Notes: a model not told the origin generated them from the sequence alone. A stretch of 64,000 nt of DNA from a virus (IMGVR_UViG_3300029813_000617:1-64000); one strand, 5' to 3'. Counted from the stretch's first letter, positions 5,738-23,505 are shown. Program-made: numbers and translations.

Positions 5738-8092
5738 CTAATGCCAAGTTGTAGACATAGACTGCCCAACCCTCGCAGCACCTATAACAGTTACGAGAAC
5801 TGTAACAGTGTCAAATGCTTGTATCCCAGGGTCGATACTCAGCTTAGCTGTGCCGGTATCCATCGTCCAAGCGCAGTTACCAGTGAGGTCTTTACCCATA
5901 AAACTCGTGAAATCCACAATAGGATTAGCTGCGGCATGACCTCGTAGTGAGTAAGCGATGATTCCGCCACCAAGAACAGCCGTGCCGGAGTCTTGAACTG
6001 CTATCTCGAGTTTGACAAGACAACCTGCCCAGCTCGCCGGAAAACCTATGGTTACCACATCAACTGCGGCAGCACCTTCAAGCTGATAGAGAGCGTGTTG
6101 CTCTGCAACCCCCTGGACAACGCCTGACCTGGTAATCATCTTCTTAGCAGTAGGAAGGTCAAGCTCGCCTTCCACTCCCAGGTCGCCCGCAATCGTGTGC
6201 GTCGGAAACTTGGCGTTGGCGTTCATCAGAAGGGGCTTACTTGCTGTGGGAGCTGCTGTAGGTTCAACGTGATGCAAGGCAACGCCTAACCCTGCTGGGT
6301 GTTTGTGCACATGGTCGCGGTGAGAAAACGGCAAAGCTGTTCCTGGTGAAGCTGCGCCGGCAATGTCTGCTGGGTTGGTAGCATCAAGAGCCGTCTTCCA
6401 TGAAGGCCTAGTCTCTGTGTCGTCAATACCCAAGACGTTTCTTACGTTGACTGCAGGAACAGCTCTGGCTAACCTTGACCACTTTGGTGTTGCATTTCCT
6501 ATAATTACATCGCCATCTATAACTGTATCCGCTAAAGTGTCTTGGTGATCTGCGCCTAGAAGATCGTGTCCACGATTGGCCAAGTCTTGATAGTTAGCAG
6601 GGGTTGCAACCAGAAAGGTGGTTTCGAAGGCGGATGCCGCCTCGGTTATTTCCGGTGCATCTTTGAACGCAATGATTCGTGCAACTAGCACTGAGAACCT
6701 ACTACAGATGTCCGGCACAGCGGGAAGTTCTGCTGCCTCTGCCTCATGTAGTTTGTAGCTGGCTCGTCCATACACGACATGCAGATGACTGTCATTGTCG
6801 AGATATACCCAATATACACCGTAACGGTTATTGGCAAGTGCAGCCAAACCTGTGCCTGTATCGTAGTTGGCAGAATCAATGTCGGTTTGATCTGCTGGAT
6901 GGCCAGTACTAGTCCAATTGCCTCCACCATCGTGATACCAAGCTCGAAATCTACCCGCACCCGACGTGTCCACTTCAGATGTTGTGTATCTATTAAACCC
7001 TGCGTAGAGAACGCCAGCAGTCACTTTTATTTTCAGTGTACCTTCATTAGAAATAATTGCGTCAGATGCTCTCTCAAAAGATCTCAATTCTCTGGCTCGC
7101 CCATGCGCCCTTCTTGCTAGATTGTAGATTCGCGTACCACCGGACAAAATATGAACCACCGTACCTTCACGAAAGACAGAACCAATTGTAAACTTGGTCG
7201 TGTGGTCTACAGTAGCATCAGGATCATCAGTGGCTCTGACTGTGGGCGTACCAGCGTTGTAATCAACATATATTGTGTTCCTTTTAGCATCAACCAGCAG
7301 GATGTTATTAGTTGTCGGCCAATCCATGAAGGCTGTAACACCATCAAACTCATCATCAGTCTTTTTGATCATTCCTTTGCCAGCAGCAACATTCACACGA
7401 CCATCAGTGATGTTACCGTCATCTGTTCCATCTGGAACATTGGCAACTGTTATAGTAGTTTCACCTGCTGCATATGTTGCATTACCAATGGTTGTATAGT
7501 CGCCGTCGTTGCCGGTAGACCCAGAGACAGTGAATACAACCCCGTCAGCGAAATACGCCATCATGTCACCAGCGACTTTAAATGTCTCTGCCACCTCGTC
7601 GGCATCTGTGATTGCATATGATGTTGCTGTGATTGCGCCGTCAGCGATTGCCCCAGCAGATTGCATGGTATTGATCCAATCCTGCACATCTTTGTATGCA
7701 GGCGCACCAACCTGCTCAACTACAACATCAACGGCGTGGTTTTGTATTCGTTCCCATCCAGCACCGTCATAGATATAGAGCAGATCTTCATCAGTGCGGT
7801 AGAAAATGCTGCCATCCACAGGTGCACCTGGAAACTCTGTGCCACTTGGCACACGCATGGTTCCTGTGAATGTCCATGCACCTGAGATGGTCTCTGCCTG
7901 AGCATGCCCGGGATATTGGGGATGATCGTCATCTCCTAAACCAGTAGTAGCTCCGTGATGAACTCTTTTCCCATGCTCAGCTACACCCGAGTGATCGTGT
8001 CCTGAAGCCGTATCCAGAACATCATCTCTCAAGGCATTGTACTGTGCAGAGAGCAGATCATCGCCTGGGTTTATTGCAGACGAGTTTGGCAT
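5738..8092 (-). CDS. Tail fibre protein 1
   Basis: QYNALRDD..GHDH N-terminus, GLGDDDHPQY, FYRTD..LYIYDG..W and DHVH motifs. Confidence 0.8.
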   Translation of the reverse strand: MPNSSAINPGDDLLSAQYNALRDDVLDTASGHDHSGVAEHGKRVHHGATTGLGDDDHPQYPGHAQAETISGAWTFTGTMRVPSGTEFPGAPVDGSIFYRTDEDLLYIYDGAGWERIQNHAVDVVVEQVGAPAYKDVQDWINTMQSAGAIADGAITATSYAITDADEVAETFKVAGDMMAYFADGVVFTVSGSTGNDGDYTTIGNATYAAGETTITVANVPDGTDDGNITDGRVNVAAGKGMIKKTDDEFDGVTAFMDWPTTNNILLVDAKRNTIYVDYNAGTPTVRATDDPDATVDHTTKFTIGSVFREGTVVHILSGGTRIYNLARRAHGRARELRSFERASDAIISNEGTLKIKVTAGVLYAGFNRYTTSEVDTSGAGRFRAWYHDGGGNWTSTGHPADQTDIDSANYDTGTGLAALANNRYGVYWVYLDNDSHLHVVYGRASYKLHEAEAAELPAVPDICSRFSVLVARIIAFKDAPEITEAASAFETTFLVATPANYQDLANRGHDLLGADHQDTLADTVIDGDVIIGNATPKWSRLARAVPAVNVRNVLGIDDTETRPSWKTALDATNPADIAGAASPGTALPFSHRDHVHKHPAGLGVALHHVEPTAAPTASKPLLMNANAKFPTHTIAGDLGVEGELDLPTAKKMITRSGVVQGVAEQHALYQLEGAAAVDVVTIGFPASWAGCLVKLEIAVQDSGTAVLGGGIIAYSLRGHAAANPIVDFTSFMGKDLTGNCAWTMDTGTAKLSIDPGIQAFDTVTVLVTVIGAARVGQSMSTTWH

Positions 8093-8931
8093 TAGATTAC
8101 CTCGTAACTTGGAAGGAACCCTGAGAGAAAGGGTTGCGGAAAGGCAAGTAGCTCCTCAGCGCGTGCCTTCTTACGATCCAAGTATACAGTTGCTCCCTCA
8201 TAAAGTAGAAGGGCCACTCTTTGAGGCAGAGAGATACCTGAATACCTTACTGCGAAAATGCTGTCATGGCGGGTTGGTCGGGCTCTCGTCTTTATGTGGC
8301 TAGAGATGAAGTCACTGAAAGCCCAAACCATGCTCTCAGTTCCGACCAAGTTTATCTTAAAGCCTCTGATCTTCCCATTCCGTCTGAAGTAACTGATAGA
8401 CCCATCGCCATCGACCATGCCCCGCCAGTAGTGGGCTAGCAGAGACTCTGAGATAGCACTACAAGGTTCCAGAGTCAGAGATTTCCTCTGTGTAACACCG
8501 AGTCGCTTAAGGCTATCTACCAGTCTCGTGGATCCAATATGCACTCGTGCTTTCTGATAACCACCTTCCCAGTAGACCTTGACAGGATGTCCGGACTCTA
8601 GTGCATCAACGAATTTTCGCAAGTGCCTCTCGTCCTTACCAGATAAAGCCAGCTCCACGAAGTTTTTGCCAATCGTCCCATCTGCTGATAGGAATCCCAG
8701 CCAATACGCCTTAGCTTCAGAATCTATACAGTCGAAGAACTCCTCATTCACAGCATATTTCCTAGAGACCTCCGACCGCGATCTGCGAGGCACACCAGCT
8801 TGCTTGAGAGCAAAGTAACAAGCATTAGGAGAGTATCCAAAAGTGTCCGCTGCCACCTTTGCTGTAGCGCCATTTCTGTAAATCGCAACCATTGTTTCCC
8901 GATGCGTTTGAGGAATTGTCTTATTTGGCAT
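8092..8931 (-). CDS. Free-standing two-motif LAGLIDADG endonuclease with N-terminal HTH
   Basis: AYWLGFLSADG and HYWRGMVDGDGSI motifs; C-terminal YLDRK. Confidence 0.85.
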   Translation of the reverse strand: MPNKTIPQTHRETMVAIYRNGATAKVAADTFGYSPNACYFALKQAGVPRRSRSEVSRKYAVNEEFFDCIDSEAKAYWLGFLSADGTIGKNFVELALSGKDERHLRKFVDALESGHPVKVYWEGGYQKARVHIGSTRLVDSLKRLGVTQRKSLTLEPCSAISESLLAHYWRGMVDGDGSISYFRRNGKIRGFKINLVGTESMVWAFSDFISSHIKTRARPTRHDSIFAVRYSGISLPQRVALLLYEGATVYLDRKKARAEELLAFPQPFLSGFLPSYEVI

Positions 8932-9399: not shown

Positions 9400-9951
9400 C
9401 TAGGCTCCCTGCCAGAAAGTGAGCTGTGTCACAACTTGCTCATCAGCGAAAGCCGCTTCCCACCCACCTTCTCTGTAGGTTCGAGTTAGTTTCAGGCGCT
9501 GAGATAGATAGCGTAGAAGTTCACGATTATATGTGGCATATACCACTATCCCCCGACCGCCTTCACCTTGACCTGCCTTAATCTCCCGAACCGCTCGCTT
9601 CCAAATTTCGAAATCCCTTTGTTTCTTCGCTCTTAAGGGATATCTCTCAAAAACTTCGACTAGGCGAATGTTGTCATCAATACGGCACACGGTGAACTGG
9701 GCACAAGGATTACTTCCTCCAGATACTGCTTTCCGAGTAATCGTTCCCATTCTCAGCTTCTCCTGTATCTCTAACAGGATTTCCAAGTCATCATCTCGCA
9801 ATGAAATGGCAAACTGAGCGCGCCAGTTCCCCCCTCTCGCTCCTCCATACGTCTGCTTAACAATCGTAAAGCTCCCCTCGCCTGCCGCGAATCCCGCAAA
9901 CCAGTCAAGGAAGCCGTCTTTGTTGAGTTCGTCTAGTTCAGACTTGGTCAT
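9400..9951 (-). CDS. Free-standing single-motif LAGLIDADG endonuclease
   Basis: WFAGFAAGEGSF...DD..IL..IQ..L.MG...YPLRAKKQRDF. Confidence 0.85.
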   Translation of the reverse strand: MTKSELDELNKDGFLDWFAGFAAGEGSFTIVKQTYGGARGGNWRAQFAISLRDDDLEILLEIQEKLRMGTITRKAVSGGSNPCAQFTVCRIDDNIRLVEVFERYPLRAKKQRDFEIWKRAVREIKAGQGEGGRGIVVYATYNRELLRYLSQRLKLTRTYREGGWEAAFADEQVVTQLTFWQGA

Positions 9952-9983: not shown

Positions 9984-11672
9984 TTAAAGAGGATACGGTT
10001 GATTGGCGAACTCTACAGTCTCTCTGACTAGATCAGTAACTCCACCTACTCCATCGCTGACCTCAAAGAAATGCTTGGTCACATGGAGAACGTACATAAT
10101 TATCGGGTTCTTCTCGGTCTTACCACTCTTCCAAAAATCCTGATAGTCGTAGAGGTCTTTGGCATCACTGATCAGCAGAAAGTATTGGCCTGGCTTCCAG
10201 CCAGTAAGGGTATAGGTCGCAAAGGAACCTGAGCGGAAAGGCCAAGCGTAACGCTGCAAGAGATACTCCCCCATAGCTTCAATCGGGTCAATGGAGGATA
10301 CCCGGAGACTCGGAACCGAGATCATGAATTCATGAACTCCTGAAGAGTTCTCGCGGTCAGCCATGAACTCAATGCTGTAGATATCCTCATACATTGAGAT
10401 CTGGTCAGGCATAGCAGGATAGTACCAAGCTGTGACATCTCCCGCAGGCAAGTCGGTAGTCGGAAAACGCATACCCATGTTGAACAGGCAAACGAAAGCC
10501 TCTGGTGGATAGTCTGGAGGACCTTTGCCAACTAATGTCTCGGTTGCTCCATCAAGTGGATCCAATCTCACAATGCGAGTACCATGATCTAGTCCATTAA
10601 TTGGATCCTCGCCAACAACTTCGACTTCAGTATTTTCCCAATCCCAAGGTTCCTGGTAGAGTTTGTAGAAACTCTGGTTTGCCACGTTGGGATAAGGGCC
10701 ATCCTGATAGAGGATGTCACCCTTCTCTGAATAACCTTTGACATAGACCCTGTTCTTGATTTGGGTTGCATCCTCAGTTACCACTACGTTACCGATATCC
10801 AGGTTACCTACATCGTCCAAGTCGAGTTCATTTCCATAGCTGACATTCAGCGGCGAGGGATTCTCCTCGAGGGCAAAGAAATGGATCTCCTTATCAAAAT
10901 CCACATACCACTGATAATGACAGGCTTCTGAGACTTCATCCAGAACTGAGCTGAGAGGCACATAGTCGTAAGTCTCTGCAGCCACTGTAAAGCCGTTCTC
11001 GACGTGAGTGGTCCCAAAAGGAAAGGAAGGTAAATCTATTTGGATCCAGGCTATCAGAGCCTTAATTCGATCTCCTGCAAGCTCCGCGCCGCGCTCTACC
11101 GTTATGAGTTTGCGATCAAGCCAGCGAGTAAAATCTGTGCATTCACAGTGGTAGCGGGTCACATCAGGATTGAACGGGTCTTCTGTAGCAATGCCAATGA
11201 TGCCCTTGAAGTGAATAGTCCCACCAATCCTTACCAGGACAGGATTGCCACTCTTTGGCCTGTCAATAGTGTCAGGGACGAGGACATTCGGTATCTCGAC
11301 TAGAAAGTTGCAGGTATCACCGTGGGGTTCTAGCCCCTCAGTGATCTCGAGGCTGGAGAGATCCAGATAGGTTCGGTATTCAACTCCGTCTATTTCAAAC
11401 ATATTGGCTGGCTCCTCTTCGAAGTCTACCTCGAGGAGCAACTGAGTTGCGCGACGCTCCTCAGTCGCGTCCTGATCGACTTCGACCAGGATTTGCGTAA
11501 TGCGTCGGTCTGTGTCCTGGACCTGATCTACTTCTGCTAGAAGCTGAGTGACATGGCGATCTGTATCTTGCTCTTGGTCAACCTCGACCAGAACTTGAGT
11601 AATGCGACGACCTGTATCTTGTTCCTGGTCGATTTCTGCCAAGAGCTGTGTGATACGTCGTTCATCGCCCAC
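9984..11672 (-). CDS. Baseplate hub/tail-tip protein with five N-terminal 17-aa repeats
   Basis: Downstream of the tape measure; WYVDFDKEIHFF and IKNRVYVKG hub-like motifs. Confidence 0.7.
   Translation of the reverse strand: MGDERRITQLLAEIDQEQDTGRRITQVLVEVDQEQDTDRHVTQLLAEVDQVQDTDRRITQILVEVDQDATEERRATQLLLEVDFEEEPANMFEIDGVEYRTYLDLSSLEITEGLEPHGDTCNFLVEIPNVLVPDTIDRPKSGNPVLVRIGGTIHFKGIIGIATEDPFNPDVTRYHCECTDFTRWLDRKLITVERGAELAGDRIKALIAWIQIDLPSFPFGTTHVENGFTVAAETYDYVPLSSVLDEVSEACHYQWYVDFDKEIHFFALEENPSPLNVSYGNELDLDDVGNLDIGNVVVTEDATQIKNRVYVKGYSEKGDILYQDGPYPNVANQSFYKLYQEPWDWENTEVEVVGEDPINGLDHGTRIVRLDPLDGATETLVGKGPPDYPPEAFVCLFNMGMRFPTTDLPAGDVTAWYYPAMPDQISMYEDIYSIEFMADRENSSGVHEFMISVPSLRVSSIDPIEAMGEYLLQRYAWPFRSGSFATYTLTGWKPGQYFLLISDAKDLYDYQDFWKSGKTEKNPIIMYVLHVTKHFFEVSDGVGGVTDLVRETVEFANQPYPL
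11410..11660 (-). repeat. Five tandem 51-nt/17-aa repeats R(R/H)xTQ(L/V/I)LxE(V/I)D
   Basis: RRITQLLAEIDQEQDTG, RRITQVLVEVDQEQDTD, RHVTQLLAEVDQVQDTD, RRITQILVEVDQDATEE, RRATQLLLEVDFEEE. Confidence 0.9.
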
Positions 11673-11673
11673 A

Positions 11674-12699
11674 CTATCTTACCACCATCCCAACTTCGAG
11701 GTTGTTGATCTCGCTCTCTGTCCAAGCCGCTCCAGTAGCAGGACTGGTCTCCACGATTTCTGGATGGTAACTATAGTCCCGATCGTATCCAATGTCATCG
11801 CTTTGATAATCTACGCCAGCGATACGCAGTAGCCGAGCAAAGTTTCCATTTCCCGAGACCGTGTTAAGTGCCCGACAGAGCCACTGTACCGCCGTGACAC
11901 TAGCCATGAATCCAGATGCCACAGGCAAATCTTGCATCTTGTACGTATCTTTCCGATTTACAGTGGCCTCCTCAACATATGTGCCACCGTCATCAGGTGG
12001 TACTTCATCTACTGCTGCCCAGTTAGCACCTGCACTCGGAGTCAGCTGTGTGTAGTTGCCCGCCCCTGTTGGTACAAGACCTATGATGCCACCCTGACCG
12101 AGCCAGCTATTGTTTACATTGCCAGATGGATCATTAATGGCCAAGTCATCGTAATACCCAGTGCAGGGAGCATAGTAAAGGGAATAAGAAGTATCACCCA
12201 AAAGCACTGCCAATACTTCGTTGCTGTCTTTCTGCGTATCTCCCGAGAAGTCAATGACCAGTGTACCATCTATCTTGACCTGAACTATACCCCCAGTATT
12301 GTCTATGAATGCATGTATCTCAATACAGCACCAACTATTAGTGGGCACTATGCCACCACTGGCTATTTCTGTGTCGTTGTAATCTCCCCTCAGAACCAGG
12401 ATAACTTTGTCGGTGTATCGTACCTTGAAGGTAAGTACGTCATGCCCCATTTGATCAGTCAAGATACAGAATATACGATCCCTAGTACCATATCCTCCTG
12501 TCATATACAAGCCGATTCGCAAAAAGAGCTCCGTATAGCTATCCCCGAGGCCTATGCATGCCACATCATGAGTATAGTCTACATACAAAGAGTAGTTACC
12601 TGTTCTAGCCTGTGCAGCAGATATAGCAACAGAACTATAAGTGCGAGAGAAGACATCGAGGGAGCCTGCTTCGAGTCCTGACATCCATATCCTAGTCAT
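11674..12699 (-). CDS. Lectin (LamG/ConA-like) tail protein, paralogue 3
   Basis: MTRIWMSGLEAG...W.CIE...QVKIDG...YYDD...AWT...LEVGMVVR. Confidence 0.75.
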   Translation of the reverse strand: MTRIWMSGLEAGSLDVFSRTYSSVAISAAQARTGNYSLYVDYTHDVACIGLGDSYTELFLRIGLYMTGGYGTRDRIFCILTDQMGHDVLTFKVRYTDKVILVLRGDYNDTEIASGGIVPTNSWCCIEIHAFIDNTGGIVQVKIDGTLVIDFSGDTQKDSNEVLAVLLGDTSYSLYYAPCTGYYDDLAINDPSGNVNNSWLGQGGIIGLVPTGAGNYTQLTPSAGANWAAVDEVPPDDGGTYVEEATVNRKDTYKMQDLPVASGFMASVTAVQWLCRALNTVSGNGNFARLLRIAGVDYQSDDIGYDRDYSYHPEIVETSPATGAAWTESEINNLEVGMVVR

Positions 12700-13712
12700 C
12701 GGACCTTTACACCTATCTCCATGCCATCAACAGCAGCTTTTGTCCATGCACCCGGGCCAGCGTCTGGGTCTTTGTCAATGATCTCAGAATGGAAGTCATA
12801 GCTGACATCAATACCCATATCCGTTCCCTGATAGTCTGTGCCTCCAATGCGTAGGATGCGGGCAATTTTTGGATCGCCAGCAAGAACTGATCTTGCTCTC
12901 GCAATCCACTGTACAGCAGAAATAGTCCCTATGGTAGGCAAGCCTTCAGCTGTATAGCTGTCATGCTCATCGACAATTGAGCTAAAGATATAAGATGTGT
13001 CGTCATCTGGTGGCTTCTCATCTACGTCTTCCCAGTTGTCCTCTCCTGAGTCAGGTTCTAGATCTAGATCAGTACTGGCACCTGCGCCAGTAGGGAAGAT
13101 CGCCGGGATTCCCCCTCGGCCAATCCAGGAGTCATTGACACCACCCGAGACATCATTGAAAGCTATATCGTCGTAATATCCCCGAACCTCTCCAAGGAAC
13201 TCACGTCCCAGCATGAAAGAGCGAACATTAGCATTAGCTGTCCTCTGTGTATCACCTGAGAAGTCAATGACCAGTTTGCCATCAACCTTAAGCTGAAAGA
13301 TTCCAGCTGTATTGTCAACGACTAGTCGGAACTCTACGCAATGCCAGTGATTCTCATAGATTCTTCCACCTGTGCCAATAAGTGTGTCATTATAATCCCC
13401 GCGTCTGACCTGCATGAGTCCAATATCTTGCTGTAGTTGTATTAGGATTTGCTTACCACCAGCACTATCATATAACTGTATTAGTTCATTCCCATACGCT
13501 TCGGTAGTCATGTAGTAAGGTCGAAAGCAAACCCGACCAAAAACTTCTGAAATATTTGCGGGGAATGACGCATATACCTCAGCGTAACCATCAATTTTTA
13601 GTGAATAAGTACCCGTGCGGACCTGTACATCCGAGATCTCTGGTGCATAGGCCCAGCTGTCGAAGACCTCTATGTGTCCAGCCTCAAACCCTGACATCCA
13701 TATCCTTGCCAT
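12696..13712 (-). CDS. Lectin (LamG/ConA-like) tail protein, paralogue 2
   Basis: Likely start MARIWMSG at 13712 (TGATG overlap with the upstream stop); ends MEIGVKVR. Confidence 0.75.
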   Translation of the reverse strand: MARIWMSGFEAGHIEVFDSWAYAPEISDVQVRTGTYSLKIDGYAEVYASFPANISEVFGRVCFRPYYMTTEAYGNELIQLYDSAGGKQILIQLQQDIGLMQVRRGDYNDTLIGTGGRIYENHWHCVEFRLVVDNTAGIFQLKVDGKLVIDFSGDTQRTANANVRSFMLGREFLGEVRGYYDDIAFNDVSGGVNDSWIGRGGIPAIFPTGAGASTDLDLEPDSGEDNWEDVDEKPPDDDTSYIFSSIVDEHDSYTAEGLPTIGTISAVQWIARARSVLAGDPKIARILRIGGTDYQGTDMGIDVSYDFHSEIIDKDPDAGPGAWTKAAVDGMEIGVKVR

Positions 13713-14725
13713 CAGCGCACTTTTACCCCTACCTCCATGCCATTGACAGCAGCAACAAGCCATGCACCAGCAGCTTCGGGATCCTCATCGAGGACGTCAG
13801 TATAGTAGTCGTAGCTGACATCAATACTCTTGTCTGCCCCCTGATGATCCACGCCACCAACACGCAAGATGCGTGCAATCTTCGGGTCACCAGCAAGATC
13901 TGATCTCGCTCTGGCAACCCACTGCACAGCCAGGATAGTCCCTGTGGCCGGTAGATCTCCGGCTGTGTAACTGTCATGCTCGTCAATAACGGCGTCAAAG
14001 ACATACGATGTGTCGTCATCTGGAGGCACCTCATCCACATCTTCCCAGTTGGCTTCCCCTTCATCAGGGACCAAACCTAGATCAGTGCTAGCACCTGCAC
14101 CAGTAGGGAAAATAGTTGGTATGCCACCCCGACCAATCCAGGAATCATTCACACCATCTGCGACGTTGTTGAAGGCAATGTCATCGTAGTAACAGTGCAA
14201 AGAGGCTGATCCCCCATGTGGAGAGTCACCAAAACTGAAACTCTTAACATTTGCATTAGCAGAAGCTTGCGTATCGCCCGAGAAATCAATCACGAGCGTG
14301 CCATCTACCTTGAGCTGGAGAACGCCTGTGGTGTTATCAACTTTCAACCGAAACTCTATACAGTGCCAGCGATTCTGATGAATTTCACCATCTCTTCCAA
14401 GGATAGTATCATTATAGTCTCCACGTCTCACATCAATGGTATGGGTATTGCGATTCAGTGCGAGATAGCACTGGGCATTTCCTGCATCATCTTGTAGAGA
14501 TAGAATCGTATCTCCACCCCCAAAGGTACTACGAAATCCAAACCTAACAAAGATCTCGGCAACAGCAGCAGGCAATGCTGCACGTGCATAAGCATCGTAA
14601 TATGTACCTACACGAAGGGAATAGGAGCCAGTGCGTGCTTGGGCAGCGCTTACCTCGGCCTCATAGCAGCTGTCAAAGATGTCCAGATGCCCTGCTTCGA
14701 GACCTGACATCCAAATTCTTGCCAT
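13712..14725 (-). CDS. Lectin (LamG/ConA-like) tail protein, paralogue 1
   Basis: MARIWMSGLEAG...MEVGVKVR; directly after the tape measure stop. Confidence 0.75.
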   Translation of the reverse strand: MARIWMSGLEAGHLDIFDSCYEAEVSAAQARTGSYSLRVGTYYDAYARAALPAAVAEIFVRFGFRSTFGGGDTILSLQDDAGNAQCYLALNRNTHTIDVRRGDYNDTILGRDGEIHQNRWHCIEFRLKVDNTTGVLQLKVDGTLVIDFSGDTQASANANVKSFSFGDSPHGGSASLHCYYDDIAFNNVADGVNDSWIGRGGIPTIFPTGAGASTDLGLVPDEGEANWEDVDEVPPDDDTSYVFDAVIDEHDSYTAGDLPATGTILAVQWVARARSDLAGDPKIARILRVGGVDHQGADKSIDVSYDYYTDVLDEDPEAAGAWLVAAVNGMEVGVKVR

Positions 14726-14726
14726 A

Positions 14727-17700
14727 TTAGCCAATCCCTACAAAGCCAACTTGGAAACGTCTGTTGAGCTTACGAACAATTGCCTGGCCAACCTTGTCCG
14801 CGAGACGGTTTGCCATAGCGTCATCCAGGATATTGTTGTCAGTGACATACACATTGACGTTGATTGGTCTCTCCCCACCCATTCTATTAAGCGGAATCAC
14901 TGCTTCTCCTGCGTGCAAAAGCGCCAAGGTTGGCTTGCGGACTATACCACCGTGCTGCAAGCCCGTGATTCCGCCCCCAGCCCCAGTGACAGTAGGCGGA
15001 GTGAGGCTCGGCCAGACCACTCTGGGGCGAATCACGATATCGCCAATGCCCTCTTCGATGGAAGACCTAATCTTCTTACCTACTTCTTTGAGATAGTCCA
15101 GGAGGGTACTCAGTCTGGACTTGATGCCAGACTGGAAACGCTCGAGCAGACTAGTCCCCCACTCCTCGGCTAAAAGGTCAACTGTAAGGAGGCCAGTAAT
15201 CCCTGCAACAACAGTCTCTTCAAGGTACGGACGCAGAAAATCAATCCAACCTATTTCGACGCCACCCAAGAATCCAGGAGAGCCTCCACCTAAGGTGCGT
15301 TTCCCTGCACCTTCTGCCTCCCTTTCGAGATCTACAGTCTTGCTGGGTGCGAACAAGTCTTTAATCTGCCCTATCAACTGGCCGATTTTGAAAACTGCAA
15401 CGACTGGAGCTAGCGCGGGTGCCAACCAGGGAAATGCTATTGCTATCGGGAAAGCCCGACCAACTGCCTTTTCGACACCTTTAGCTGTCGCGATAACTGT
15501 GGGATCAAAGGCTGTCATAGCTGCCTTGAATCCTGTGAACATCGCTCCACCCAACGCCTTGCCAAGGCCAATGATGCGAGGTTCTTCTCCCTTTTCTGCC
15601 TCAAAAAGTATATCAATAGCAGACTGGAGAGCAGCTCCGAACAACCCACCAAGAGCAGCAGACAATCTGCCACCAGTCTCTGGGGTCTCGATGAATTTTA
15701 CGAACTCATCTATGATTGTGGCGACAAGGCTCACAAGAGCACCCGAGTCTATCAGAGACTCTCTCACTATCTCGAACACTGTAGCAAAGAACTTTGCAAG
15801 TGAACCAGCGATCCCCGAGAGATCAACTTTCTCAGGCAGAACAGGCATATATGGAACCGCCCAAAGATCGATAGGGACTTCTGGGGCACCTGTGATCGCA
15901 TCTGTAATTGCATTCAGAATGTCTGCGACAAACCCGACGATCTTCGGCTTATTCTTCTCTAACAGTTGAGTCAGGAAATCTAGACCTCCGACGATGATGC
16001 TACCAAAGATATCTATGATAGTCCCAATGATGCTTTGTCCCTCAGGAGATCCAAGTGCCTCCTTGAGCTTTATTCCAATTGCTCTGACAAGTTCCAATGC
16101 GAACGTTGCAAGTCTTTCCAAAAGGGGCGGCCTTACTTCGATTTCCATATCGCCTGGAAATATATCCCACCATTCTGGCACAGAGACTTTTTGAGGGCTT
16201 ATAAGTGCCTCTAGCGCATCAGCAAGCGCAGGCCCAAAGAAGTCCCTGGTCCACTTGAATACCTCTGTCTTGATAGCTGCTGAGCTTGGCAAGAGGAATG
16301 CGGCGAGCCCAGCCACAACGATGCCCAGAGCGGGACTGCCGAAGGCAGTAGCCACAGCGGCAATAAGCCCTATCACAAGGACACGGAGCCACTCCTCAGA
16401 GATGGCGTCTTTGAGTAATCCACCTAGTTGCTTTACTCCTCCCAGGACATCGCCAGCTGTGATGGCCTCCATTGCCTCATTAAGTCCATCGGTAACCTCG
16501 TCGGTGAGCTTTCTTTTCTCCCCAGGAGGATAGATTGCCATTAGGAGCCCTGTCGTTATCCCTGTTAGCAGGGCACCACCTATCTTTGCAAGAGCTTCCA
16601 GATATCTTCCAGACACGAGGTCTTCCCTGATTGCGTCAAGCAGTCCGAACCAAGCCTTCTGTAATCTTGGATCTGTGGAGAGTTTCCAGATGCCTGCTAC
16701 GAGTGCGATGGCTAGTCCTGCGAAGAGAGCGTTAACCGCTGTTCCCCACTCCTGCCCAAGGAGACTCGTAGCAATCGCACTAGCCAGCTTCGCACCAAAG
16801 AAGAGGGCAATTAGCCCAATAGCTGCAAGGAGAGCAGCGTAGAGCTGAGGGGGCAAGTTGGCAATAAAGTCCTTGGCTCCCTGGAGAAAGGCTGCCCAAT
16901 CCATTTCCTTGAGAGCCTGAGCCATCCTTCGTATAGAGTCCCAGAGAGGTTTGTTAACCTGAAGCCACTTCTTGAACCAGGCCCAAAGCCCCGCTACCGC
17001 CTTTAGAACCCGTCCAACAATCCAACCAAGTACTTTGAAAGCAGCAACGGCTAGGAAGATAGCTCCCACGAGGACTATCTTGATGCCGATCCACATCTCC
17101 CTTAAGGTCGGCATGAATTCGTCAAGTGCATCCTTCCAAGTCTGTAGGGCTGATGCCCAGAGGCCAGATGCCTTTACGAAATCTATGACCGACTTCGTGA
17201 GGTAGTAGATCTCCTGGCCTAACTTGACAATGAACTTTAGAATAGGAACAATAAAGTCCTTGATGAACGGAGTTGCAATTAGACTCAGGATTGACTTGCG
17301 AAGAATGCCTATTCGTGCTACCAGACTCTCATAGGTTCCAGCTTGCTCTTTCAGAGATCCTGTAAACCTGGTCTCGATTTGAGTGAGAAGGCCAGTTAGG
17401 GCTGCCTGCCTGCCCAAGAGGGTTAGACGCTTATCCTCAGCTTTGGTAACACGGATACCCCAACTCCATAGACTTGCAAGATTCGACTTCTCTTTTCCAA
17501 TCGCTGCAGACATAGCTGCTGCTGTCTCAGTAGCCTGCTTGGCATTCGCTGCAGCAAGATTCAAAGCTGCCTTCCAAAGCCTGGGGGTGACCTCAAAGTT
17601 CTCTGCAAGCTCCATCCAAGCCTCGGCGAGATCTTCCACTGTATAGCCAGTGCGAGCAGCCTCCTCACGGAAAAAGTCCATGCCACGTGCGGCCTCAGCC

Positions 17701-21406: not shown

Positions 21407-22357
21407 CTATGGTGAGATGTAGCTATCCTCAGAGTTCTTGAGCACGATCTTGATAGGGCCAGCGTCAGTCGTATTATAGAGTGCCCGCCCACTGACTCCC
21501 AGAGTGATAAAGATCCCACTCTTGTCCAACTCGGCAGGAGCGTCCCCCCAGTTGAGCTGGCTCATTGTGAATTGGATGCTCTTCTCGCTTGCCCCTGTCC
21601 CATAGGACAGGCTTATCACAACTGCGTTCGTGGCGTGAGTTAGTACATAGTTCAATTCTGCATTGTCAATTGCATCGAAGGTCATAGAGCACGTAACGGC
21701 CAGGCCTCCTGAATAGACTGCTGCTGGGAACTGACTTCCGTCTAGGCCGTGACGGGTTGCAGCCTCGCGCTCGAGTGTGAGTTCACAGTCGATGAGTCTT
21801 GCATTGGCTCCCCCGATATCCAGAGCAGCGTGCCACCCAAGCAGAGGAGCACTCGTATCCTCACCTGGGATATCCCCTGAGCCTGGTGCTGTGCCCAGCT
21901 TTCCTGTCAGGTCTGATGACCAGGTAAGCAAACCCTCCGATGAGCTAAAGGTGAATGTCAAACTCGAAGGTAGCATTCCTATGAATCGGCGAGAACTACC
22001 AGATTCATAGACCCCACCCTCTTCCTGGACAGCGAGACTCTTTGGCTGGGAGTCCATAGTGAACGTGTGCTCGTAAGGAGCACTAGTGCCACTAGTTGGG
22101 TCGCCCAATATCGCCAGGATCAAGAACCCCATCTCCTCAGGGAAGAAGAGTCCCCCAAGACTCATCTCTACAAAACCTGCACCTTGGTATGCGCCAAAGT
22201 CCATAGCGTTGATGCCCCGAAGCAAGTTATCCAGGATCTGCTCGTAGGGTTCTGTGATGCCAGGCGGCTCAATGGGAAGCATTCGATGGGGAGCTTCCGC
22301 CGAACCCCATGAGCTTTCCCTTGCGATCCCAATCTTTATGTCTCTTGATATAGTCAT
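21407..22357 (-). CDS. Major tail tube protein
   Basis: IGIARESSWG N-terminus, PYEHTFT motif, 316 aa, upstream of the chaperone. Confidence 0.85.
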   Translation of the reverse strand: MTISRDIKIGIARESSWGSAEAPHRMLPIEPPGITEPYEQILDNLLRGINAMDFGAYQGAGFVEMSLGGLFFPEEMGFLILAILGDPTSGTSAPYEHTFTMDSQPKSLAVQEEGGVYESGSSRRFIGMLPSSLTFTFSSSEGLLTWSSDLTGKLGTAPGSGDIPGEDTSAPLLGWHAALDIGGANARLIDCELTLEREAATRHGLDGSQFPAAVYSGGLAVTCSMTFDAIDNAELNYVLTHATNAVVISLSYGTGASEKSIQFTMSQLNWGDAPAELDKSGIFITLGVSGRALYNTTDAGPIKIVLKNSEDSYISP

Positions 22358-23505
22358 GTCCTGACCTCCTTAAGTTTCCTCCGCCGAACAGCAAGTGCCT
22401 CTCTGAAAGCAGTAGCCCAGCGATGAGCGTGCAGGTGAATGGCTCGATGGCCTTCCACGTAAGCCTTTGCACTGAGACCTAGTGAATTGCGCAGGTTCTG
22501 GCGAGTGACAAGGGCTTCGATACCCTTGACCCATTCACCAGTTGTATTTCGAACCAGGAGCCCTCTTTTTCGGTGAACAGAACCCTGATATGCGGGTACA
22601 TTGCTAACCACAGACGGGAGCCCAAACATCGAGTACTCGAGGTACTTGAGATCGGACTTCCCTATTCTGTTAAAGTCGTTGCCGATTAGGGGAATAAGCC
22701 CAATGTCAAAATCCACAAAGTGCGATGGATACTCTGCTAGATTAGTATAGCCCGAGTCAGCGATGACTTGTGCTTGAGGAAGCTCGTCAAGCCATCCCGG
22801 TTCCATCCCAACACACTTGAAGCATGTGTTAGGGAATCGGTTCAAGATGATTCTCAGCGGCTCCCGTACAAGTTCTAGGTCATCTCTGTGAGTAGGACCC
22901 CCCATCCAGCCTATGATTAGCTGGCCGTTAGTTTCTGGCTTTTCGATCCTCCAGCGAGGGTGATGTGTGTCAACATAGTTCGATATACAAACTGCCACAC
23001 TACCAGGTTCCATATATTGTCGATAGGTGGCAGCGAGACGAGTTGTAGTAGCAATCAACAAATCGATCTTTCCCAGCACCCTGAGAAAGTCAGGAACCTT
23101 CTCCTTCCAAAAAGTGGCAACAGCCTCAAAGGGAATATCAGGGAAAGAGACTACATGGTCGTCAATATCCATGACGATAGCCTTCCCTAGTCGCTTTGCT
23201 TTTTCTATGATTGGGATAAGGGTATCTGCCCGCTCCTCTCGCTCCAGAAAGAAGACGTTGGCCCAATTCAAGAGTTTCGCCATGAAGGCTTTGGTTTTCT
23301 CGTCAGTCCTGATCTTTCCCTCAGAGTCATGGGGAAGCATCTCTCTCCAAACTGCCTGAATAGCCCCTTGGTCAACAAGAATCTTGAGAGGAAGCAGGAC
23401 CCTGTAGTAGCCACTTGCAAGAGTCTCATAGCAAGGGGCTATGACCTTCAGGGAAGGGATGATTCGCCCTATTCGCCTTCGCGCTCTCTTAGCCATCAAT
23501 CTCAC
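22354..23505 (-). CDS. GT-B fold (GT4-like) glycosyltransferase in the neck/tail operon
   Basis: DIDD, IGWMGGPTH..DL, FDIGLIPL..NDFN..KSDLKYLEY...GLPSVVS. Confidence 0.8.
   Translation of the reverse strand: MRLMAKRARRRIGRIIPSLKVIAPCYETLASGYYRVLLPLKILVDQGAIQAVWREMLPHDSEGKIRTDEKTKAFMAKLLNWANVFFLEREERADTLIPIIEKAKRLGKAIVMDIDDHVVSFPDIPFEAVATFWKEKVPDFLRVLGKIDLLIATTTRLAATYRQYMEPGSVAVCISNYVDTHHPRWRIEKPETNGQLIIGWMGGPTHRDDLELVREPLRIILNRFPNTCFKCVGMEPGWLDELPQAQVIADSGYTNLAEYPSHFVDFDIGLIPLIGNDFNRIGKSDLKYLEYSMFGLPSVVSNVPAYQGSVHRKRGLLVRNTTGEWVKGIEALVTRQNLRNSLGLSAKAYVEGHRAIHLHAHRWATAFREALAVRRRKLKEVRT

Follow-up and report, generated by a model that had tools for sequence, protein, structure and literature searches.

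The viral DNA analyzed here, IMGVR_UViG_3300029813_000617:1-64000 (64,000 nucleotides (nt) in full, referred to below as the window), carries a tail cassette made of three paralogous genes, P1, P2 and P3, and the gene of a larger protein, the hub. Our analysis makes it likely that these proteins form a split-domain, plug-and-socket attachment at the tail tip of a siphovirus-type phage, which would operate by strand donation in trans. The C-terminal beta domain (C-domain) of the paralogues stops one strand short of its longer homologues, and the hub starts with tandem copies of that strand.

The missing final strand and its copies in the hub

The original prediction had described three translationally coupled paralogues of ~340 amino acids (aa) with a common C-terminal stop, a description confirmed by the open reading frames (ORFs), the gene junctions and the alignment. 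P1, P2 and P3 align over their full length, with 64% identity between P1 and P2 and 44% between P1 and P3, and share one end, E-[VI]-G-x-x-V-R, directly before the stop codon. The claim that their C-domains are conserved holds for P1 and P2, where identity is higher in the C-domain than in the N-terminal domain (N-domain; 74.5% vs 55.6%), but not for P3, which shows ~44% in both. All three are matched over their full length by phrog_2448, a family of unknown function (E 2e-25 to 7e-31). The matches reach position 334 of the 335 in the profile, and by the standard of their own family the paralogues are complete. This family is very large: a profile search returned 36,428 cluster representatives (clusters at 50% identity) at E <= 1e-3 and 13,490 at E <= 1e-30. 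Pfam provided no family for the paralogues, the hub, the fused forms described below or the proteins gp315 and gp316 of Caulobacter phage phiCbK, and a profile search of the PDB sequences found no relative of a paralogue or of the hub.

The AlphaFold2 monomer model of P3, built with 75 homologues in the alignment, had a predicted local distance difference test (pLDDT) score of 93.5 and a predicted template modeling score (pTM) of 0.91. It recovered at the fold level the LamG/ConA-like N-domain that had been proposed: this part of P3 is a ConA/LamG-type jelly roll according to both VIA-align and Foldseek (probability 1.00). The best VIA-align matches were the glucuronan lyase 2zzj_A (root-mean-square deviation 2.9 Å over 188 residues) and Cip1 3zyp_A, both with Z 18.2. 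Many lectin and carbohydrate-binding module (CBM) domains scored Z 13-17, and two phage baseplate decorations, Douge chain 8zdo_a and the J-1 Dit CBM2 (5ly8_A), scored Z 14.4 and 12.8. Membership in the ConA-like lectin/glucanase (LamG) superfamily is thus seen at the level of the fold, and Pfam Laminin_G_3 had no match in the window proteins. The C-terminal ~135 residues of P3 make up a separate beta domain; the VIA-align and Foldseek results for the P3 model were filled by matches to the N-domain. In the ESM Atlas the C-domain also occurs as stand-alone viral proteins of 140-180 aa that have no Pfam name. The look-alikes of P3 residues 200-341 in the same resource include 415-aa Zixiibacteriota proteins with the type IV pilin N-methylation signal PF07963 (template modeling (TM) score 0.89 by query), and by this structural likeness the socket domain may be used on pili too.

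The original prediction also held that this type of C-domain usually continues into one more strand, and the homologues bore this out. Nearly all near-length homologues (115 of 116) stop 0-4 aa past the end of the profile. Among the complete C-domains found in all the proteins fetched (n = 260), 250 stop 0-5 aa past this point, that is, before the extra strand, 10 run on and no intermediates were seen. Seventeen run-on domains were examined, loci included. They came from a search for longer proteins (P0129, P0130 and two copies in P0131), from an exhaustive profile search (P0210 and two copies each in P0250 and P0254) and from eight long ORFs in metagenome loci. Every one of them continues with a loop of 6-14 residues, a strand of the same form as the hub repeat, and then a Pro/Thr/Ser-rich linker. 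The form of this cis strand is [R/Q]-h-[S/T]-x-h-x-h-x-[V/I]-[D/E]-[Y/F/H]. A regular expression made from the trans repeats alone had a match no more than 20 residues past the domain end in 8 of the 17 cis tails, where 0.0027 matches were expected per search interval; it had 2 other matches in 15,685 positions (binomial P ~6e-17), and the remaining nine tails are one position off. A 13-residue hidden Markov model (HMM) of the trans strands was too weak for this purpose, as its best match fell on the cis strand only in P0131, P0250, L076 and L079, and it found nothing in several others. The truncation counts and the regular expression matches show that the additional strand is real and that the hub repeats are copies of it. 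As in donor-strand systems, the acceptor lacks a strand that is present in complete homologues, and the missing strand is encoded on the partner.

Mixed forms were also observed, among the ORFs L039:1746-4010 and L041:8709-10973 and the upstream ORFs of L042-L044. One type is a 755-aa protein that carries an array at its N-terminus and a C-domain-like segment internally; the other consists of 233-aa proteins in which a C-domain with its own cis strand precedes additional repeats. Chains of this kind could become linked to one another.

The gene next to P3 encodes the hub and, as had been stated, starts with five 17-aa repeats (residues 5-89), placed before a body with a gp27/Mu gp44-type fold. 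Each unit combines the sequence R-x-[IVA]-T-Q-x-L-x-E-[VI]-D with an acidic spacer. The spacers, which had been described only as acidic, are so but also conserve the pattern D-Q-x-Q-D-T-D. Tandem Repeats Finder detected no 51-nt repeat in the DNA of the array, and the units are only 49-69% identical at this level, so that the repeats are not recent DNA duplicates. The blank result arises because the units have diverged at synonymous sites and is no argument against a repeat in the protein. No second copy of the array or of the paralogues is present in the 91,230-nt genome to which the window belongs.

When the hub was modeled alone as a monomer, the overall pLDDT was 68, with ~80 (moderate quality) for the body and 22-28 for residues 1-88, and the array is predicted by this model to be disordered. 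The body gave Foldseek matches to the HFTV1 tail (9h4p_BD, E 2e-15), Mu gp44 (1wru, 1e-12), the 80alpha baseplate (6v8i_AE, 5e-11) and T4 gp27 (1k28_D, 4e-9), over ~480 aligned columns and with TM scores by target of 0.6-0.7 for Mu gp44, MuSo2 and gp18; it had no sequence-level match in Pfam or the PDB. Homologues of the body lie directly behind the tape measure protein (TMP) gene in Thermoanaerobacterium phage THSA-485A and in locus L010. The fold match and the gene position after the TMP indicate that hub is the right name for this 562-aa protein. By analogy with its solved relatives it is expected to be trimeric, and the HFTV1 hub (gp44) is a trimer that anchors tail fibres (PMC12494034). 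One tblastn match in THSA-485A seemed to start within the repeats, but the alignment had run on through the stop codon of the TMP gene; the THSA protein itself is free of repeats.

Linkage, mobility and selection of the strand arrays

To follow the arrays beyond the window, 80 metagenome loci with family genes were sampled together with IMG/VR loci. The strict core of the strand, Q-h-h-h-E-[VIAT]-D, was counted 117 times among the 558,536 residues of six-frame ORFs taken from the related loci and not once in the reversed sequences, which excludes a chance origin of the motif. Every one of these matches sits in an ORF that adjoins a family gene. A more general motif gave arrays of two or more units in 33 of 4,879 ORFs, as compared to 3 in the reversed control. 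All 33 ORFs are on the coding strand at 0-1302 nt from a family gene, most of them abutting it.

Truncation was predicted to co-occur with repeat-bearing neighbors, and it does. Where a stand-alone family gene has at least 2 kb on both flanks, an array was found in 11 of 12 loci, and in the twelfth (L031) the HMM detected one. When the required flank was lowered to 1 kb on each side, the count was 14 of 17; the HMM was positive for L028 and L031, and L024 is a true negative. Loci with fused forms only had an array in none of nine cases. Two natural controls agree with this pattern. In L010, which has no paralogues, a homologous TMP directly precedes a hub body that lacks repeats (P0120). In L003, L004 and L005, two paralogues abut a protein of the Sipho_Gp37 type, at whose N-terminus four repeats are followed by a poly-Pro linker, whereas in L006 the same Gp37-like body (84% identity) is found without repeats and without paralogues. 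The L006 protein itself (L006:8375-11128, 917 aa) consists of a 430-aa N-terminal domain, a Thr/Ser linker of ~115 residues and the Sipho_Gp37-type body; the linker occupies the place that the strand array and poly-Pro linker have in its relatives. The 430-aa domain has no detectable homology to the lectin family, and L006 is accordingly an architectural control and not a fused family member.

The arrays move independently of the bodies that they precede. Arrays more than 80% identical to each other head three unrelated bodies, namely the hub type (in the window and in P0117), P0123, and the Gp37-like P0124 and P0125, while P0118 has a body 82% identical to that of the hub and no array. P0117 is 90% identical to the window hub and differs from it by a single complete 17-aa unit, and across the sample the copy number ranges from 2 to 9 in whole units. 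Orthologous arrays, compared over 68 codons, differ by 18-38 synonymous and 3-15 non-synonymous changes, and the spacers behave likewise. The codon comparison therefore indicates that the array is a portable module under purifying selection. Its other settings are microproteins of 70-100 aa and the N-termini of mid-sized proteins, and L064, L066 and L072 have arrays on both sides of the lectin gene. One two-unit array lies at about residue 1480 of a 2,127-residue ORF (L029:437-6817), immediately upstream of a stand-alone family gene, which shows that arrays are not restricted to N-termini.

With some reserve, we lean toward extending the reading to the family as a whole. Its tens of thousands of clusters, phiCbK gp315 among them, would be mounted by completion in trans, with portable arrays of 2-9 strands acting as scaffoldins on hubs, Gp37-like proteins, the 2,127-residue ORF and microproteins of 70-100 aa. 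Cassette exchange would then reshuffle the copy number and the lectin set and give a multivalent, possibly mixed display.

Docking model and competing explanations

A complex of P3 with hub residues 1-95 was modeled with our own alignments in three runs, alongside three controls. The interaction prediction score from aligned errors (ipSAE) was 0.93, 0.92 and 0.93, and the best of the controls reached 0.00; one control, in which the array was kept and the paralogue swapped out, also scored 0.00. The mark set for ipSAE is reached by 58 of 80 solved complexes and by 2 of 110 mismatched pairs, counts that are rough here since our own alignments were used. At least 94% of the contacts are common to the three runs. 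The pLDDT of the hub partner was 47-49, a value to be expected should four of the five repeats remain unbound. Since no solved relative could be found by sequence, memory of a deposited complex is unlikely to lie behind the model.

In the predicted geometry, hub residues 69-90, which include repeat 5, run antiparallel to P3 residues 267-278. The P3:hub pairs with the lowest error are 278:74, 277:75, 276:76, 274:78, 272:80-81, 270:83 and 267:84. The same hub segment also contacts P3 residues 200-210, 229-245 and 336-341 as well as a conserved N-terminal motif (residues 3-13); the P3 side of the interface lies mostly in the C-domain. The pairing of a strand repeat with a paralogue, as originally anticipated, was therefore reproduced by the model. 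The idea of five sockets on the hub had to be turned around: relocation of the strand to the hub is largely supported by computation, but it is the repeats that would be the plugs and the lectins that would carry the sockets.

These observations suggest the following mechanism. Each paralogue would consist of a ConA/LamG-like head, probably glycan-binding, and a beta domain at its C-terminus. The last strand of this domain is not part of the paralogue gene; the hub gene encodes it, as five tandem copies in the N-terminal region of its product. During tail assembly, a free strand would insert beside C-domain strand 267-278 and complete the domain in trans, tethering the lectin module to the hub in a manner analogous to donor-strand complementation in pili. 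The array would act as a scaffoldin holding up to five heads per chain, and because the gp27/Mu gp44 fold is trimeric in every solved relative, a hub trimer would offer up to 15 sites. We infer that all five repeats can be occupied, with P1, P2 and P3 placed along the sites as a mixed display that would be present in the virion. The arrangement likely originated when a protein of the order lectin, C-domain, strand, linker and body was split between the C-domain and the strand, after which the strand would have multiplied in tandem.

Several points weigh against this mechanism. The predictor may reproduce a cis arrangement learned from fused homologues, in which case the model would speak for likeness and not for binding between these copies. 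The P3 monomer is confident without the strand (pLDDT 93.5), and so lends no support to the open edge groove expected in a paralogue alone or to instability of the truncated domain. Repeat 5 alone was bound in the model, and the other four end in D-Q, unlike the D-F/Y of the cis strands. Conservation of the modeled interface was 0.52 as compared to 0.43 in the rest of the protein (P 0.002) but 0.51 vs 0.53 when set against the rest of the C-domain, and adds no independent support. No array was detectable in L024, nor in L049 and L070, which have short flanks. The numbers of repeats and paralogues do not match, being 5:3 here and 4:2, 8:2, 9:2 or 3:1 elsewhere. Finally, the backing for strand binding is computational.

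Three other explanations were weighed. The use of repeat 5 only by the complex model, the mismatch in counts and the fact that D-F/Y, the ending typical of the cis strands, is confined to the final unit in all arrays of the window clade would agree with a 1:1 split protein, in which the last repeat, nearest to the hub body, docks one paralogue and the upstream four are a flexible acidic spacer or the site of another partner. The model, however, was given one paralogue copy and could bind one repeat at most. Moreover, all repeats keep the full strand motif under purifying selection that includes the spacers, the copy number varies in whole units, and in distant phages (L052, L064, L073 and phiCbK gp316) all units of an array are alike. 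We consider this 1:1 arrangement improbable. Less credible still, and in our opinion very improbable, is the proposal that the array is an independent element, such as a trimeric beta-spiral stalk, a linker or an inert relic of fission, which travels with the lectins in one exchangeable cassette while these attach by another surface. Co-occurrence alone is indeed no proof of contact, and the hub model, made of a monomer only, says nothing against an oligomeric fold of the array. Yet such an element leaves unexplained why the unit of the array has the motif of the strand found behind the C-domain in all fused homologues, why arrays are absent from all nine fused-form loci, and why the model gives a specific pairing with clean controls, including 0.00 with the paralogue replaced. 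An inert relic is in addition at odds with the excess of synonymous over non-synonymous changes reported above.

The remaining explanation, compatible with docking, bears on the lectin label and counts against it: the N-domains could be polysaccharide lyases or depolymerases, so that the hub would display enzymes. The top fold matches include the PL20 glucuronan lyase 2zzj (Z 18.2) and PL14, PL7 and PL36 alginate lyases, and P1 has a weak Pfam Polysacc_lyase match (E 0.008, below the cut-off). Non-catalytic domains score equally, however, among them AbnA domain 4, sialidase lectin domains, the J-1 Dit CBM2 and the Douge baseplate protein, and we regard an enzymatic role as doubtful.

If docking by strand donation is true, it would explain how the products of very common "hypothetical" phage tail genes (the 36,428 clusters without a Pfam family or a solved structure) are mounted, and tandem donor strands acting as a scaffoldin would be a new principle of baseplate assembly. 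It would also give an annotation rule, by which a stand-alone family gene predicts a nearby strand array and the array marks the anchoring protein, and would account for the many 70-100 aa repeat microproteins in tail modules. Gene fission, strand multiplication and transfer of the module among unrelated scaffolds, in this order, would be a simple route to multivalent adhesion. The phiCbK pair gp315/gp316 offers a cultured model in which the docking hypothesis is directly testable.

Cassette layout and known systems

The cassette and its flanking genes form a tail module on the minus strand, and all the sequence features of the original prediction are present in their place (Table 1).

Table 1. 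Positions in the window of the cassette genes, their domains and two upstream tail genes
Feature	Position	Strand	Basis
Tail tube gene	21407-22357	minus	Pfam Phage_tube_2
Tape measure protein (TMP), 1573 aa	14727..19448	minus	Pfam TMP_3 and PHROG tape-measure families
P1, 340 aa from TTG	13712..14734	minus	phrog_2448 E 7e-31; family HMM E 2e-128
P2, 338 aa from ATG overlapping the P1 stop	12696..13712	minus	phrog_2448 match, 64% identity to P1
P3, 341 aa, adjoins hub gene	11674..12699	minus	phrog_2448 match, paralogue alignment, AlphaFold2 model
P3 N-domain, residues 1-205, ConA/LamG-like jelly roll	12085..12699	minus	VIA-align, Foldseek
P3 C-domain, residues 206-341, putative socket beta domain, one strand short vs longer homologues	11677..12084	minus	Run-on homologues; complex-model interface
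P3 residues 267-278, strand predicted to pair antiparallel with the donor strand	11866..11901	minus	Complex model
Hub protein, 562 aa, GTG start	9984..11672	minus	ORF; fold match; homologues
Array of five 17-aa putative donor-strand repeats, hub residues 5-89	11406..11660	minus	Sequence; disorder in hub-alone model; selection
Repeat 5, hub residues 73-89, ends D-F like cis strands; docked on P3 in the model	11406..11456	minus	Complex model
Hub body, residues 90-562, gp27/Mu gp44/VgrG-type fold	9987..11405	minus	Foldseek; homologues behind TMP

The cassette starts 1 nt after the TMP stop codon. In the order TMP, P1, P2, P3 and hub, neighboring genes meet at TAA-T-ATG, TGATG, ATGA and TAG-T-GTG, an arrangement that is in line with translational coupling of the cassette genes. 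The true start of P1 is probably the ATG at 14725. The P2 ORF is open to 13763, with ~17 extra upstream codons over the end of the preceding gene that are Cys-rich (M-A-C-C-C-C-Q-W type), and the downstream paralogue ORF L003:8932-9999 has the same kind of upstream extension. Most likely, this is a by-product of a conserved overlapping frame and no real N-terminus.

Beyond the hub gene lie two LAGLIDADG endonuclease genes, fibre genes and an M23 peptidase gene. The two LAGLIDADG-type genes (9400-9951 and 8092-8931, minus strand) are free-standing, located between the hub and the fibre genes, and match Pfam LAGLIDADG_1 (E 4e-15) and LAGLIDADG_3 (E 6e-6). Homing at these genes might promote the swapping of adjoining tail cassettes. 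A glycosyltransferase-like gene (22354-23505, minus strand; weak Glyco_trans_1_4 match, E 4e-5, below the cut-off) is found directly upstream of the tail tube gene, within the structural module.

The same pair of genes is present in cultured phages. In phiCbK, the family member gp315 (L091:5575-6663, phrog_2448) has directly upstream of it gp316 (L091:5364-5573), a 70-aa "hypothetical" microprotein with three strand repeats and a short hydrophobic tail, which itself lies downstream of the 1413-aa virion tail protein gp317. The phiCbK array is thus a free 70-aa microprotein, whereas that of the window is part of the hub. In Brevundimonas phage Fanboy, a Gly-rich protein of 460 aa annotated as "putative lectin-like domain protein" (L002:7820-9202) adjoins two family members and ends with about six repeats of the variant form R-[ILV]-T-x-x-x-[LI]-E-x-L. 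The Fanboy array is therefore C-terminal and has Leu in place of the acidic residue, whereas the window array is N-terminal and its strands end in D. Full-text literature searches found nothing on the phiCbK tail tip. Those combining strand donation with phage tails or receptor-binding proteins returned sheath handshakes and pili only, and no tandem strand arrays that dock receptor-binding modules.

As regards its anchor, the window hub body shares its fold and its gene position after the TMP with the gp27, Mu gp44 and VgrG hubs, including HFTV1 gp44. Its close relatives (P0118-P0122 and the THSA-485A protein), however, do not have the 89-residue N-terminal strand array. In carrying several receptor-binding modules on one baseplate component, the cassette would resemble other multivalent phage assemblies. 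The tailspikes TSP1-4 of CBA120, gp63.1/gp66 of G7C, the lactococcal BppU/BppA/BppL and the evolved Dits with CBMs (J-1, PDB 5ly8) use folded adaptors or covalent insertion. The window and the phiCbK locus would use short strands instead. ConA-like or CBM domains are known to decorate siphophage tail tips (Douge, PMC13033339), and strand exchange has been described in contractile sheaths (PMC13266070).

The scaffoldins of cellulosomes provide a parallel for the array, as one chain with tandem docking sites receives different carbohydrate-active or carbohydrate-binding subunits and varies by whole units. Here, however, the docking unit is an 11-residue strand within a 17-aa unit and not a folded cohesin, and it is proposed to complete a fold, where cohesin and dockerin join two folded domains. 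There is no homology to scaffoldins, and no cohesin or dockerin match to Pfam was obtained in the hub, the paralogues or their relatives. The closest likeness in mechanism is to the chaperone-usher (Pap/Fim) and type V pili. In these, as proposed here, an acceptor beta domain is one strand short and another polypeptide supplies the strand, the donor being a short, extended peptide that becomes ordered only on binding. The differences are nevertheless clear. The two are not homologous, the acceptor here is no Ig-like pilin and belongs to a phage tail module, no chaperone or usher takes part (Pfam and PHROG scans of the cassette gave no pilin, chaperone or usher family), and assembly would be cytoplasmic, in the virion. 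The donor strands would moreover be arranged in tandem on one scaffold and catch several globular modules, with no head-to-tail fibre, and the modeled pairing is antiparallel. The cassette would work like the chaperone-usher systems, yet is no member of them.

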